This document shows positions 4,065 through 61,019 of a DNA stretch of 64,000 nt, piece after piece; position 1 is the stretch's first letter; each line of letters begins with the position of its first letter. This stretch comes from Eledone cirrhosa. Taxonomy: Eukaryota. The DNA lies in contig OZ024755.1 in the NCBI GenBank assembly GCA_964016885.1, forward strand, positions 35,402,001 through 35,466,000, read 5' to 3'. The notes below the pieces were generated by a model. The model saw nothing but the letters and a program-made list of their open reading frames with translations. It searched no databases and was not told the DNA's origin. The position numbers and the translations under genes are program-made.

Positions 4065-4111
4065 TTTCCTGATGATTTCCTTCGAATGAAACAGTTCAAG
4101 TCCTGTAGAAG
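4065..4111 (+). ncRNA. Type I hammerhead ribozyme motif in short fold-back element (3969-4125)
   Basis: TTTC-CTGATGA-tTTCcttcGAAt-GAAA-CAG[ttcaagtc]CTG-TA-GAAG; same family at 21100-21210 and 27089-27214. Confidence 0.65.
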
Positions 4112-14488: not shown

Positions 14489-15700
14489 TCGAAATATAAC
14501 AACGGAATATAATAGACAAAATCCATGGGGCTGAAAATCAGAGACATGAGGGTGACCGAACATTTAGCAGCTTCTACCCCATATATATATGGAGGCACTT
14601 GGATTAGTGGTTAGAGCATTGGGCTTGCAATCAAAAGGTTGTGAGTTCAATTCTCAGACCGGGTGATGTGTTGTTTCCTTGAGGAAGACACTTTATTTCA
14701 CATTGCTCCAGTTTACTCAGCTGTAGAAATGAGATGATAGCGACTGGGGTCCATATCATTCCACTGCAAAGTGGTCGTGGAGGTGCCACGGAAAAAAAGC
14801 ACCCAGCACTCACTGTAAATGAGGTTGGTGTTAGGAAGGGCATCCAGCTGTAGAAATCAAGCCAGAATCAGTTCTCGTCCCACCCTTGCAAGCAGGGAAA
14901 AGCGGACATAAAATGATGATGATGATGATGATGATGATATGTACATATATATAATGTGTCTTTCTTGCCTGTCACTTTTTCTTTTCCCCACTCTTCCATT
15001 TTTTTGTGTATCTTGATGCTTCTCCGTTTTTCTCACACCATTTTATCTCCGCCTATCCCCCTTTCACCTGTGTAGGTGTCTTTTCTCATACCTTATTTTC
15101 CTGTTGAGTACTTTATTAATTATCATTAATTTTCCTAATTAATAATTACATTTTCTAGAGGTCAGAACCACAACCATCTCGTGCAATTCTTGTTATAATT
15201 TATGAATACAATTTAATTTTTCTTTAGTTTGATGTACAATAAATTATATCAATATAAAATATTAATAAACCTTCCATAATAAATTATAGCTTCTTTTATG
15301 TTATAAACAATTTAATTACTGTTAAAATATTTGCATGTTGCTTTCTGTACTCTTACAATAGGCCTGTCCTATACTGGTTATTTATTAAATATTATGCACA
15401 CCATAAAATTTTATCAACTTTAATGGCCCAAGACTTCTTTAGTTGGGTCACTCAGTAATTAGTTGTTGCTAATTGTCACTTTGTAATTATGTAAATGACC
15501 AGATGCTATTATGATAAACTTGTGTTGACTATGATAAATTCAGGGTGGTGTGTTACAGGACGAGAACGGGGAGGGACAAAGAAAATGGAGTGGAGAATGG
15601 TGAGAGGAGGGGGAAAGAAGAGGTAGAGGAGAATGAGTATACACACATATATATATATATATAATATAAGATCAAAAGATGGTTAAAAGAGTTCCATGTA

Positions 15701-15767
15701 TTTTATTATGCGCATTTCAAAAACAAATATCAGCATGGGATGATACTTGTGCTCTCATCAGATAAAA
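15701..15767 (-). ncRNA. Type I hammerhead ribozyme motif
   Basis: rc: TTTTAT-CTGATGA-..ACAAGTATCA..TGATATTTGT..-GAAA-TGCGCA-TA-ATAAAA. Confidence 0.8.
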
Positions 15768-15902
15768 TAGGAAGACATGATATGAAGCTTAAAAAACACT
15801 TGCGAGCAGTGAAGTGTTAAATCTACATATAAATCTACAATATGTAGATTTAACACTTCACTGCTCGCAAGTGTTTTTTAAGCTTCATATCATGTCTCCC
15901 TA

Positions 15903-15970
15903 TTTTATCTGATGAGAATGCAAATATCATCCCATATATGATATTTGTTTTTGAAATGCACATAATAAAA
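15903..15970 (+). ncRNA. Type I hammerhead ribozyme motif (inverted-arm copy)
   Basis: TTTTAT-CTGATGA-..CAAATATCAT..ATGATATTTG..-GAAA-TGCACA-TA-ATAAAA. Confidence 0.75.
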
Positions 15971-16095
15971 TACATGGAACTCTTTTAACCATCTTTTGAT
16001 CTTATATTATTTATACTCCAGTCCTACAAACTGTTGAGTGCTACTTATCCGATATCTGCATTGCTTTATTGTGCTACAATAAAACTCACCTCCTA

Positions 16096-22180: not shown

Positions 22181-23002
22181 AATGATTGGAAATTTATACC
22201 ATGCCTTCAGATCTTTATTTTGATACAAATACTCCGTTTTACATCATCTACCTGTTCCCATAAATGGAATTGGAGATATACAAAAGCATGGAGAACTTAA
22301 TATTGCTAACAAAAGTTTATTGACACAACCAATAATACACCTTACTATTCATTCATTTCATTTTACGTCCGCTTTTCCCTGCTTGCAAGGGTGGGACGGG
22401 AACTGATTCTGGCTTGATTTCTACAGCTGGATGCCCTTCCTAACACCAACCTCATTTACAGTGAGTGCTGGGTGCTTTTTTTCCGGGGCACCTCCACGAC
22501 CACTTTGCAGTGGAATGATATGGACCCCAGTCCCTATCATCTCATTTCTACAGCTGAGTAAACTGGAGCAATGTGAAATAAAGTGTCTTGCTCAAGAAAA
22601 CAACACATCACCTGGTCTGAGAATTGAACTCACAACCTTTCGATTGCAAGGCCAATGCTTTAACCACTAAGCCATGTGCCTCCATCTATATAACAACTAT
22701 ATATATATATATATATATTGCAAGGAATATATATATATATTCAAGGTTCTTGTTAATTTTTAATATGTTGCCTCCGTAACTATGTGTGTTTACACTCTTT
22801 ACAAATTATCCCCTGTAATTGTTTGATGCGTTTATTTGATATATATATATATATGTCATTCAACTATTAATTTAATATAAATGCTTGGATTTACTACTTG
22901 GAATCTTTGAGCTTATTCCACAGGTGGTTTGGCGCATGTTTCTGATATTCTCAGACATGGCATCTAATATAATTTTGGTAGTATATATATATACACACAC
23001 AC

Positions 23003-53975: not shown

Positions 53976-54106
53976 GCAAAAGTTCTATTTAACATTGTTG
54001 GGATACAACAAGTAAATATTTTTATAACTAATATAAAGCACTCGACAAGTAATTGGAGTAGATATACGATATTAATAAATGGAAACTATATTTATAAAAC
54101 CATATT

Positions 54107-54171
54107 TATTTCATTATACATATTTCAGGGATACCAAATTAAATTATGGTATGCCTTCATCAGACAAAATA
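54107..54171 (-). ncRNA. Type I hammerhead ribozyme motif
   Basis: rc: TATTTTGT-CTGATGA-AGGcATACCA..TGGTATCCCT-GAAA-TATGTA-TA-ATGAAATA. Confidence 0.75.
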
Positions 54172-54317
54172 CAATATATAACAGTTTTACAAATAAGCTT
54201 TGACGTACCCTATTAAAATGCAACCATTATTTTTGGAAGCCATCCGGATGGCTTCCAAAAATAATGGTTGCAAATAATGGTTGCGTCAAAGCTTATTTGT
54301 AAAACTGTTATATATTG

Positions 54318-54382
54318 TATTTTGTCTGATGAAGGCATACCATAATTTAATTTGGTATCCCTGAAATATGTATAATGAAATA
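54318..54382 (+). ncRNA. Type I hammerhead ribozyme motif (opposite-polarity copy)
   Basis: Same motif on the + strand. Confidence 0.75.
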
Positions 54383-54652
54383 AATATGGTTTTATAAATA
54401 TAGTTTCCATTTATTAATATCGTATATATATATATATATATAGGAACAAGTAAGACCCCGACGGCTGAGCTCAAGCCGTTTCGACGGCTAATTCTGTACT
54501 GAATGGAAACTATTCAGTACAGAATTAGCCGTCGAAACGGCTTGAGCTCAGCCGTCGGGGTCTTACTTGTTCCTATTTCCCACTCTACTACCCTAAGTAT
54601 TGAGTACTTTGGTGCGTTATGGTCCACCTGGTTCCTTACCACATTTCCTTCG

Positions 54653-56200: not shown

Positions 56201-56779
56201 CCATCTTGCCCAATCACCCTCCCCTTCACCCCCTCTCTTCTGCGACACCAGACTCTTGCCACCTCTTCCCGTTGTTGTTTTTTTCTTTTGTGTCTTTTTT
56301 CCTCTGTATTTCCCTATTCTTTCTTTCCTTTTGTTTCCTTTTTTTTATTATTATTGCCGTCATTATAGTTGTCATTCTATTATGTCCCTTTACGGTCTGA
56401 GTTCAAATCCCGCCGAGGTTAACTTTGCCTTTCATCCTTACGGGGTCGATAAAATAAAGTATCAGTCACGTACTGGGGGTCGATTTAAACGACTTTTCCC
56501 TCTCCCCTCAAGTTACTTGCCTTATTTAAGCGACCGCTAACCGGAAGTGTTGACATTTGAACATTTTAAAGAAGTGAATCTTTAAATAAGTAATAAAATA
56601 TATTTAATGAACGAAATTGAGTAGATAAATTATGTAATATTCATTCAATCCAACTTATTTTACTAATGGGATAAAAAAAAGTAATAAACCGTACGCAGTA
56701 CCGCGCTCCTTACTTTATTATAGTTTAGACTAGCAGAATGACCCGGCGTTGCTCAGGATTCTAAACATAGATTGGAATG

Positions 56780-57436
56780 AATGTATATATAGTGTATTTT
56801 GCAATACACTGTATGCTTAATTAAAAGCATTTCAAAGACCTTATGCTATTATTTTAGAGTAGTGACAGACTCACTTACTTTAATTTCAGCAAACAGGGAG
56901 AGATAAAGCTGACAAGGCCTTGTTTCTGCATTTATTGATGCTTATCAAAGCCAACTACCCCCCCTGCCTGTTGAAATCATGGATGTTTGGTTCTTATAGA
57001 ATTCTAGTAAATAAACAGGAACTGATTATACAGAGCGGTTGCTGGTCAAGCTGAAATTAAAAATTAGAATTGGTGCTCTGAAATAGCTATATATATATGA
57101 ATGTATATATAGTGTATTTTGCAATACACTGTATGCTTAATTAAAAGCATTTCGAAGACCTTATGCTATTGTTAGAATTCTATAAGAACCAAACATCCAT
57201 GATTTCAGCAGGCAGGGGGAGTAGTTGGCTTTGATAAGCATCAATAAATGCAGAAACAAGGCCTTGTCAGCTTTATCTCCCCCTGTTTGCTGAAATTAAA
57301 GTAAGTGAGTGTGTCACTACTCTAAAACAATAGCATAAGGTCTTCGAAATGCTTTTAATTAAGCATACAGTGTATTGCAAAATACACTATATATACATTC
57401 ATATATATATATACCTATTTCAGAGCACCAATTCTA
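56780..57436. mobile_element. Retrozyme-like insertion: 1.2 tandem units of a 320-nt monomer (-) joined to an inverted partial copy (+); 13-bp TSD
   Basis: TSD ATAGATTGGAATG at 56767-56779 and 57437-57449; direct repeat at 56777 and 57097; inverted copy 57173-57436. Confidence 0.75.
57203..57296 (+). ncRNA. Type I hammerhead with U3-A8 core variant and long stem I (minus copy 56884-56976)
   Basis: TTTCAGCAGGCAGGGGGAGtagttGGCT-TTGATAA-GCATcaataaATGCa-GAAA-CAAGGCCTTG-TC-AGCTttatCTCCCCCTGTTTGCTGAAA. Confidence 0.75.
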
Positions 57437-58236
57437 ATAGATTGGAATGTTTACCCCTCCTTTCTGAAACAGTACAGAGGAGTACGGAATACCTCGGCCT
57501 GGGGATGGTGTCTACATTTTGTGCTTATAAAAAAAATTCGTCGTAGATTACCAGGGGTTTAACTTAATTGGGGGCCTGAGAGTAACATATTCAACCCACG
57601 AAAGCCAAGACGATAGGGTTAAGTAAAAGGGCATTCGACAAACCGAACATGTATTTTTTGTGCTATAGTACAATGAAAGCAATAGTTACAGAGCAGTAAG
57701 CATGTGGGACTGCAGTGGTGGAGAGCATGAAGGAATTTAGTTGGATACTTTTAAGGTTACAGGCCCTAACGCAACCAAAATGCTAAACAATGCGGTCCCC
57801 GGGCAAAAATTTCAAATCTTTTTCAGTCAAGAAAATTTATGAAACATAAGTAATGCATATGCAAAGTTTAAAAATAATCGGTTGGGTACTTCTCAAGTTA
57901 CAGGCCCTAACGCAACCAAAATGCTTTTTAAAATCGGTTTTTCGCCTAATGTGGTCCCTGGGGCAAAAAATACTTTAAACGACATAAGTAATGCAAATTA
58001 TGAAGAAATCGGCTGGATTATTGTTCCGTTATGCTACAAAAAACATTTAAAGCCTAAAATATGCGGTTTTTCGCCTAATGCGGTCCCTAGAGCATTGAAA
58101 ATTTGAAATATTTTTTGCTCAAAACACTCACACAACTATAAGTATTACATGTGTAAAGTTTGAAAAATATCGGTTGGGTGGTTCTCTAGTTTTAGGGAGT
58201 CAGACAGACAGACATTCTCTGTTTTAGATATGTAGA

Positions 58237-61019
58237 CTAGCAGAAAACCACCCGGTGGACGGTTTTCTGCTAGCAAATCTAGTGTATATACTGATATTGT
58301 TGAGATTTGGATGAGAAATGTTTTCGGCACCACATGTTCACCGCCTCTCGGTGTGTCTTTTATGCATGTATAAATATATATGTTATCTATACGGTGAAAT
58401 CTTTGAAATAAATATATGTTAAAACGAAAAAGGAGAAAATAAATAACTGGCGGTTAGAAAAAAATATTCCTATGAAATTTTAATCATACCATTAGATGTG
58501 AATAAGGAAATATTTTTTTATTGTCAAAACAAATGTTCAAAAGTTAAACTTCAATTTTTTTAATTATTTCCAATTTTTTCATGAAATTGAACACTGGACA
58601 TTGGCTGCTGGAAATGGAAATTAAATCGTATTTAATTGTATTTAAATTTCTAACCTTATTTTATTATTTATAGTTTTTCAATAAGAAATAAAAAAAAAAA
58701 AATAAAATAATAATTGAAGAAAAAAATTGAACAAATCAAACGTAGGTTATGCAACTGCGCAATCTGATTAATAAATTACCTCATCAGCAGCAACCTTCAT
58801 CAAATGGTCCTTATTATCAGCAGCAACAACCACAAATTCAATGGCAACCTTCTTCAAACCACAAATTCAATGGCAACCGTCTTCGCATGGTGTCAAGTCA
58901 GAACCGCCTCGAACTGGTTACTTCTGGCTTGTGCAAGGTGTCTCTATAGCAACCAGCGATTCCCTCGGCCTCAGTGACCAAAGTCAGTGGAGGGGGGAAG
59001 GTAATGTTTCTATAGCACGTGTTTTAGCGTCTATTCACTCTCTCTCTCTCCCTCCCTCTCTCCCTCCCGCTATCCCCCTCTCGTAGTCTGTCTCTTTCTT
59101 TCACTCTCTCTCTACGCACGTGTTTCCACTGTCGGACAGACAAACAGAGAAATTGCTGGTTATATATATAAGTAGACTAGCAGAAAACCACCCGGTGGCC
59201 GGTTTTCTGCTAGCAAATCTAGTGTATATACTGATATTGTTGAGATTTGGATGAGAAATGTTTTCGGCACCACATGTTCACCGTCTATCGGTGTGTCTTT
59301 TATGCATGTATAAATATATATGTTATCTATACGGTGAAATCTTTGAAATAAATATATGTTAAAACGAAAAAGGAGAAAATAAATAACTGGCGGTAAGAAA
59401 AAAATATTCCTATGAAATTTTAATCATACCATTAGGTGTGAATAAAAAAATATTTTTTTATTGTCAAAACAAATGTTCAAAAGTTAAACTTCAATTTTTT
59501 GAATTATTCCCAATTTTTTCATGAAATTGGACACTGGACATTGGCTGCTGGAAATGGAAATTAAATCGTATTTAATTGTATTTAAATTTCTAACCTTATT
59601 TTATTATGTATATTTTTTCAATAAGAAATTTAAAAAAAACAACAAAAATTGAAGAAAAAAATTGAACAAATCAAACGTAGGTTATGGAACTGCGCAATCT
59701 GATTAATAAATTATCTCATCAGCAGCAGCCTTCTTCAAATGGTCCTTATTATCAGCAGCAACAACCACAAATTCAATGGCAACCTTCTTCAAACCACAAA
59801 TTCAATGGTAACCTTCTTCGCATGGTGTCAAGTCAGAACCGCCTCGAACTGGTTACTTCTAGCTTGTGCAAGGTGTCTCTATAGCAACCAGCGATTCCCT
59901 CGGCCTCGGTGACCAAAGTCAGTGGAGAAGAGAAGGTAATGTTTCTGTAGCACGTGTTTTAGCGTCTATTCACTCTCTCTCTCCCTCCCGCTATCCCCCT
60001 CTCGTAGTCTGTCTCTTTCTTTCACTCTCACTCTCTCTCTACGCACGTGTTTCCACTGTCGGACAGACAGACAGAGAAATTGCTGGTTATATATATAAGT
60101 AGACTAGCAGAAAACCAGCCGGTGGCCGGTTTTCTGCTAGCAAATCTAGTGTATATACTGATATTGTTGAGATTTGGATGAGAAATGTTTTCGGCACCAC
60201 ATGTTCACGGTCTCTCGGTGTGTCTTTTATGCATGTATAAATATATATGTTATCTATACGGTGAAATCTTTGAAATAAATATATGTTAAAACGAAAAAGG
60301 AGAAAATAAATAACTGGCGGCTAGAAAAAAAATATTCCTATGAAATGTTAATCATACCATTAGATGTGAATAAGGAAATATTTTTTTATTGTCAAAACAA
60401 ATGTTGAAAAGTTAAACTTCAATTTTTTGAATTATTTCCAATTTTTTCATGAAATTGAACACTGGACATTGGCTGCTGGAAATGGAAATTAAATCGTATT
60501 TAATTGTATTTAAATTTCTAACCTTATTTTATTATTTATAGTTTTTCAATAAGAAATAAAAAACAACAACAACAAAAATTGAAGAAAAAAATTGAACAAA
60601 TCAAACGTAGGTTATGCAACTGCGCAATCTGATTAATAAATTACCTCATCAGCAGCAACCTTCTTCAAATGGTCCTTATTATCAGCAGCAACAACCACAA
60701 ATTCAATGGCAACCTTCTTCAAACCACAAATTCAATGGCAACCTTCTTCGCATGGTGTCAAGTCAGAACCGCCTCGAGCTGGTTACTTCTGGCTTGTGCA
60801 AGGTGTCTCTATAGCAACCAGCGATTGCCTCGGCCTCAGTGACCAAAGTCAGTGGAGAGGGGAACGTAATGTTTCTATAGCACGTGTTTTAGCGTCTATT
60901 CACTCTCTCTCTCCCTCTCGTAGTCTGTCTCTTTCTTTCACTCTCACTCTCTCTCTACGCACGTGTTTCCACTGTCGGACAGACAGACAGAGAAATTGCT
61001 GGTTATATATATAAGTAGA
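58237..61019 (-). mobile_element. Three head-to-tail non-autonomous Helitrons (family 2): 58237-59176, 59177-60103, 60104-61019
   Basis: Each rc starts TCTACTTATATATATAACC and ends in a hairpin + CTAG; junctions are CTAG|TC; outer flank A|TC. Confidence 0.85.

Follow-up and report, generated by a model that had tools for sequence, protein, structure and literature searches.

The stretch from 56767 to 57449 of the window (the whole 64-kb piece of Eledone cirrhosa DNA that was analysed, to which all positions refer) is very probably one insertion of a putatively non-coding, 320-nt hammerhead ribozyme family, consisting of two outward-pointing arms and placed in a Helitron by the enzymes (endonuclease and reverse transcriptase, RT) of a Penelope-like element (PLE). 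The observations behind this reading are a target-site duplication (TSD), the two-arm layout, fixed ends with one site per end, a bias towards (TA)n targets, covariation in the hammerhead, and PLEs of the same layout in the same genome. The ribozyme would cut itself, its RNA may be circular, and the partner enzyme would be a PLE protein.

The 13-mer ATAGATTGGAATG is found at 56767, at 57437 and nowhere else in the window, giving a left (56767..56779, plus strand) and a right (57437..57449, plus strand) duplicate. The last 3 nt (ATG) of the left copy are also part of the element's 3' end, and the first 2 nt (AT) of the right copy also belong to the element; because of these shared nucleotides at the junctions, the TSD measures 8-13 bp. 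The left arm (56777..57173, 397 nt, sense on the minus strand) is 5'-truncated at 57173, passes once through the predicted ribozyme cut site and has its 3' end at 56777, which is fixed site 1, the motif CATTCAT located 134 nt past the predicted cut. The right arm (57173..57438, 266 nt, sense on the plus strand) is likewise 5'-truncated at 57173, where the arms overlap by 1 nt, and ends at 57438, which is fixed site 2, 168 nt past the predicted cut. When the sense strand is numbered from the predicted cut site, the left arm runs from 58 to 134 after one full turn and the right arm from 225 to 168. The insert is thus composed of two 5'-truncated arms with their 3' ends outward, at two fixed sites 34 nt apart; this copy lies outside a microsatellite, and both sites are base-precise in it, at +134 (56777) and +168 (57438). 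The stretch between the two sites forms a PLE-type tail of 36 nt (57403..57438, plus strand), which is found on the right end only, and an internal copy of it lies at 57063-57096 (34 nt). The initial annotation had recognized a 320-nt recurrence and an inverted copy, and both are borne out: 56777-56853 recurs at 57097-57173 with 97% identity, 57173-57402 is the reverse complement of 56777-57006 at 97%, and 57326-57438 is the reverse complement of 57063-57173.

The host is a non-autonomous Helitron-like repeat (56730..58236, minus strand) of ~0.84 kb without the insert. It has a TC at its 5' end (58236) and a GC-rich hairpin plus CTAG at its 3' end (56730), where it adjoins the next Helitron-like end. 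A search of the 3.0-Gb genome with the right flank of the insert gave 14 other host copies, which are all empty. The duplicated site is single in 14/14 of them, and the 13-bp duplication proposed earlier is a genuine TSD. In 13 of the 14 empty copies there is a C where both TSD copies of the window have an A, and the A variant is therefore older than the insertion, which then duplicated it. The base after the host's 3' end is T in all 13 empty copies with that end located. The 5' end was located in nine of the 14, and its TC is preceded by A in six, by another Helitron end in two and by something else in one. The host accordingly has the 5' TC, the 3' hairpin with CTAG, the insertion between A and T and the lack of a TSD that are known from Helitrons. 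Together, the empty copies and the Helitron ends uphold the proposal of a target-primed insertion with TSD into a Helitron host. Helitron-like elements form a head-to-tail chain at 56730 and 58237, and a direct repeat of 935-940 nt follows at 58225-59931.

The unit of the family has 320 nt, a GC content of 0.34 and putatively no coding capacity. A genome search with it yielded 1797 candidates, and the 40 that were scored showed 94-96% identity. A 27-mer common to two subfamilies has 3244 exact matches in the genome and its reversed control has 0. Searches with two sister subfamilies (identity about 85% and 71-79%) yielded 3085 and 2690 candidates, counts that overlap and are not copy numbers. 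The family comprises thousands of dispersed copies plus some tandem arrays. One array, on contig C14, has about 28 units. Distances between its units are lowest at lags 6 and 12, a higher-order periodicity that points to amplification at the DNA level once the insertion was in place. Two further arrays (L216 and L233) continue past their extracted regions. Of the genome-wide arrays with variable start points expected in the initial annotation, the arrays exist, but the ends are fixed in nearly all arms of the sample described below. The C14 array (L046/L047, 23.499-23.508 Mb) carries a short inverted arm at one end and a tail end at the other. At another locus (L199:707-1310), a 168-nt deletion derivative (sense 53-220) without the ribozyme core is arranged in tandem and still ends at site 2.

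The ends were mapped on the first 100 listed matches of the 27-mer, which are consecutive along chromosome 1 (C1); all but 3 were extracted, these 3 being within loci that were already included. With a duplicated locus, a tandem variant of 168 nt and two long arrays excluded, 109 arms were left; the segment starts at position 3 seen for L216 and L233 are artefactual, as these arrays exceed the reference in length. Site 1 was taken as sense 130-148, since it is blurred by TA of the target, and site 2 as sense 165-178. The arms end at site 1 in 55 cases, at site 2 in 47 and elsewhere in seven, so that 102/109 end at the fixed sites. Among 68 insertion groups, 38 are inverted pairs with their 3' ends outward. 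These comprise 32 with one of each site, two with site 1 twice, none with site 2 twice and four with one other end, which makes 32 of the 34 classified pairs one of each (binomial p 2.9e-8). A (TA)n tract follows directly after 42 of the 47 site-2 ends. TSD length is 8-13 bp at the window locus and is mostly masked by (TA)n at other loci. Site 1 is not merely a place of TA annealing, since CATTCA is also the end in a sister family that has no internal TA tract. The 5' truncation points cluster at sense 50-59 (10/126 segments), where the left arm of the window also stops (58), and this cluster is possibly an RT pause site.

Two fixed 3' ends with a tail on one end constitute the tail signature of PLEs. 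According to 10.1101/2021.04.23.441226, PLE insertions show an inverted 5'-truncated copy, a 30-40 bp tail on one end and a TA bias; according to PMC11167929, the tail is as long as the spacing of the two internal sites at which the RT starts, and ribozyme cleavage is dispensable in vitro. Inverted 5'-truncated copies and partial tandems are present here as in non-autonomous PLEs. As the fixed two-site ends resemble those of PLEs, the insertion was likely made by a PLE enzyme. The end map also speaks against the earlier description of the insert as a circularly permuted monomer: both window ends coincide with the fixed sites, and 56777 is therefore the 3' end of an outward arm rather than a random entry into a circle. 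Fixed ends in other copies are also the outcome that the initial annotation had itself named as refuting it.

Each unit bears one type I hammerhead with a long stem I, the core box TTGATAA, stem II GCAT/ATGC, the box GAAAC, a 5-bp stem III and GUC. In the window, nucleotide 17 is at 56911 on the minus strand and at 57268 on the plus strand. The left-arm hammerhead occupies 56884..56976 (minus strand), with the predicted cut between 56911 and 56910, and the right-arm hammerhead 57203..57295 (plus strand), with the predicted cut at 57268|57269. In the latter, the plus strand carries TTGATAA (U3-A8) at 57231-57237, stem II at 57238-57251, an extra A at 57252, GAAAC at 57253-57257, stem III at 57256-57267 and C17 at 57268. 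The window core is TTGATAA instead of CTGATGA, and the extra A precedes GAAAC (before G12). A descriptor that permits U3-A8 and one extra base, written after the motif had been spotted by eye, matched the sense strand in 34/40 units (the extra base being absent in 25 and present in 9), the antisense strand in 0/40 and 0/2000 shuffled sequences. The assignment to the retrozyme class with one hammerhead per 320-nt unit is in agreement with these matches. On the other hand, the ribozyme on both strands that had been noted before is accounted for by the inverted arm only; the ribozyme is on the minus strand of the unit, and both window hammerheads have equal polarity relative to the element.

Rfam at gathering scores gave a single match in the whole window, a tRNA, and no hammerhead; at E up to 10, the insert gave chance hairpin matches and no hammerhead. 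A copy without the extra A matches the Rfam model HH9 at E 0.0094, with 20.5 bits against a gathering score of 52 bits. In an alignment of 16 sequences from three subfamilies, pairing holds in 95.7% of the cells, and both bases are exchanged in 14 of 33 pairs, a number matched by 3/500 shuffles and compared with 0-4 in slid controls; since there are three lineages only, the changes represent few independent events. At the 3-8 core pair, 10 of the 16 sequences have U-A and 6 have C-G, C3-G8 being the form of a sister family and U3-A8 that of the window's family. The active hammerhead fold differs from the predicted ground state, which in linear and circular folds has stem II and distal stem I paired and stem III and proximal stem I mispaired. 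The lineage with the extra A has 185 exact matches as compared to 224 for the canonical core. Taken together, the unit appears to have a conserved type I hammerhead fold and is predicted to cut itself. Hammerheads with U3-A8 are natural variants reported as active in vitro (PMC3088659, PMC4209133).

Two other candidates failed the descriptor. In the one on the plus strand, CTGATTA...GAAATAGCTATA, CTGATTAT belongs to a local hairpin; the one on the minus strand, GAAATGC...GCATA, is without the first core box. Ten more type I descriptor matches, with CTGA(T/A)GA cores and in several other repeat families, occur in the window at 4107, 5449, 15707/15964, 20028, 27172, 27412, 46392, 54115/54374 and 54750, and the genome appears very rich in hammerhead elements. 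The regions 15656-16015 and 54059-54430 are inverted pairs resembling the insert. Right after a hammerhead pair and beside a TA tract, 54440-54576 holds a perfect 65-nt inverted repeat with a 7-nt spacer. A weak tRNA-like Rfam match at 22617-22674 (29.3 bits) is probably a SINE head.

A GIY-YIG search of the genome gave 10,596 candidates, 150 of which were scored, and 50 PLE-bearing loci were examined. One locus (L108) has a 938-aa frame with RVT_1 (28 bits, just below the cut-off), GIY-YIG (above the cut-off) and a Cx4CxxC linker of the Neptune/Nematis kind, with direct repeats on both sides. This copy (L108:3273-9312, C1:145.87 Mb) and those at L109 and L110 have long open RT frames of 938, 844 and 1096 aa, respectively, and the terminal repeats of L108 are about 98% identical; these copies have possibly been active recently. 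Two PLE families, A and B, have two end sites into (TA)n and U3-A8 hammerhead motifs, and in family B the TTGATAA core and the GCAT/ATGC stem II are those of the unit. Autonomous PLEs with RT and GIY-YIG in this genome resemble the unit in their end layout, in targeting (TA)n and in having the U3-A8 core. Local alignment of the unit to the terminal repeats of family B (13 loci) scored at or below shuffles, and the unit's tail has no significant similarity to family A or family B. In the 50 PLE-bearing loci (from 10,596 candidates), the hammerhead core and stem II are the only homology to a PLE terminal repeat that was found.

The proposed insertion would begin with sense-strand transcription of a source copy or array. 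A PLE protein with RT and GIY-YIG domains would then nick both target strands, 8-13 bp apart. Synthesis of cDNA would be primed at site 1 by one nicked strand and at site 2 by its counterpart, so that only one end receives the tail; this step is drawn solely from the genomic counts, because the anole PLE shows no strand preference between its two start sites in vitro (PMC11167929). Both cDNAs would end early and be joined by microhomology, giving the inverted pair. Two cDNAs, one per target strand and joined in mid-insert, fit better than the single cDNA with a strand inversion that was suggested at the outset.

In the count before exclusions, 90 of 126 segments pass through the cut site one or more times with a constant period of 320 nt, and most of the templates of these cDNAs were therefore continuous there, being either uncut multimers or circles closed by ligation. 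A few arms do end at the cut site, namely those of L226 and L003 and the two arms each of L164 and L197. Exact symmetric joins at the cut site number five genome-wide (one being L164 and one on a small contig), against one at an adjacent 8-nt palindrome and two at another 8-nt palindrome common to more copies. These stops and joins, small as the counts are, weakly support real cleavage, and linear, cleaved RNAs likely made up a minority of the templates. L203 only seems to stop at the cut, because its alignment changes subfamily at that point. The tandem parts within an arm diverge as much (272/4987 sites, 5.5%) as separate arms do (349/6738, 5.2%), which does not discriminate circle from multimer. 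The partner arm is the nearest relative in 4/36 pairs only. Rare variants are shared by repeated parts of one insertion in 21/147 and 58/214 cases, as compared to 303/10,596 for random pairs. By analogy with studied retrozymes, the odds that the usual template would be a ligated 320-nt circle and not an uncut multimer are about even, and from the sequence the fixed priming sites seem compatible with a circular template. In its most specific form, the proposal is that a Penelope RT dimer primes the ribozyme-made 320-nt circle at two fixed sites, strictly one per target strand, and rolls through the ligated cut site; this is put forward tentatively, as a possibility short of an even chance.

The strongest alternative keeps the same PLE machinery but dispenses with the circle: uncut multimeric transcripts of tandem arrays would be copied, and the ribozyme would be dispensable for movement. 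Such arrays exist on C14 and at L216 and L233, the extra-A variant is nearly as widespread as the canonical core, and ribozyme mutants of the anole PLE are reported to insert normally, with unprocessed RNA as the main substrate (PMC11167929). On the contrary, compensations in stems and core have been preserved in three subfamilies, arms end at the cut site, where symmetric joins exceed those at the longer palindromes (again small counts), and the animal retrozymes studied in PMC7229834 accumulate as circles. This alternative is judged a serious contender, slightly less than an even prospect.

Movement of a SINE-like element by a LINE, with the inversion produced by L1-type twin priming, is improbable. 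LINE-driven insertions can also show a TSD of 8-13 bp, 5' truncation and inversion, and these features of the insert are compatible with that origin. However, twin priming would leave a variable internal outer end, which here is fixed and paired with the tail end in 32/38 pairs, and there is no poly(A) end. Less probable still is the account of the initial annotation, in which one cDNA started at an arbitrary point on a 320-nt circle, made 1.2 turns, switched strands and was integrated. The passage of most segments through the cut site, the constant period and the rare variants shared within insertions agree with it, but the end map contradicts it, as the ends are fixed, both outer ends are 3' ends and 56777 is site 1. 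A DNA-level repeat (satellite, MITE or Helitron-captured fragment) with an incidental hammerhead-like motif, to which the higher-order periodicity of arrays, the palindromic overall shape and the location inside a Helitron would be suited, is the least credible reading, given that the insert is absent from all 14 empty Helitron copies, that arm lengths and centre vary and the ends differ by the tail, unlike terminal inverted repeats, and that the RNA structure covaries on one strand only.

The proposed two-arm insertion by PLE enzymes bears on which enzyme moves animal retrozymes and whether the circle is copied, questions so far argued from co-occurrence and terminal-repeat homology. A preprint (10.64898/2026.07.22.740005) derives retrozymes from PLEs on these two grounds, mostly in vertebrates. 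Insertion anatomy is a different kind of evidence, in which the two-start-site signature of PLEs ties retrozyme mobility to PLE priming, and the near-strict one-of-each rule is not seen in the in vitro PLE work. If the specific circle model holds, thousands of copies would form a genomic record of retrozyme circles as direct templates of PLE enzymes, the PLE tail would mark first- versus second-strand priming, and recognition would depend on RNA structure and not on homology to the partner. With a 320-nt substrate, base-precise predicted start sites, the variants C3-G8, U3-A8 and extra A, and candidate PLE proteins, the questions of mover and circle become directly testable.

Among published systems, PLE tails on retrozyme insertions were not found described in the literature searched; the supplementary lists of PMC7229834, PMC4209133 and 10.64898/2026.07.22.740005, which lie outside that search, may include the family. 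The main text of the Octopus repeat annotation (PMC13282606) leaves ribozymes unmentioned. The U3-A8 variants of Perreault et al. 2011 (PMC3088659) and of the Schistosoma Cercyon PLEs (PMC4209133) have the same compensatory 3-8 core pair; here, by comparison, a single element has both the U-A and the C-G form, in subfamilies that are homologous, and the insertion between 11.1 and G12 was not found among the variants described in those two papers.

The element, with its short low-GC unit, one hammerhead per unit, tandem and dispersed copies and TSD of more than 4 bp, is best classified, by its sequence features, as a probable new member of the animal non-LTR retrozymes, a class that is itself already known. 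As described by Cervera and de la Pena 2020 (PMC7229834) and Li et al. 2026 (10.64898/2026.07.22.740005), these likewise have a non-coding (putatively so here), low-GC (34% here) unit of ~300 nt, a single type I hammerhead of canonical size in each unit, copies both dispersed and in tandem arrays, a TSD of >4 bp and co-occurrence with PLEs. In contrast to those descriptions, the present family has a U3-A8 core, a long stem III and, in about half of the subfamily, the extra A before G12, and most of its copies are inverted and two-armed, with fixed ends and a tail. Homology to PLE terminal repeats is reported for 21/57 Xenopus retrozyme families as against none found in the 50 loci here, and the studied retrozymes are circular RNAs, whereas this family is known from genome sequence alone. 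The EN+ PLEs (Neptune/Nematis-type for the linker, Poseidon PAc for the mechanism; Craig et al. 2021, Frangieh et al. 2024) differ from the unit in that the latter is putatively without an ORF, has a canonical-sized instead of a minimal hammerhead and is without homology to the PLE families examined. As reported there, EN+ PLEs have in common with it the partial tandems, the inverted 5'-truncated copy, the one-ended tail of 30-40 nt, two internal start sites for the RT, insertion into (TA)n and a hammerhead placed upstream of the ends.
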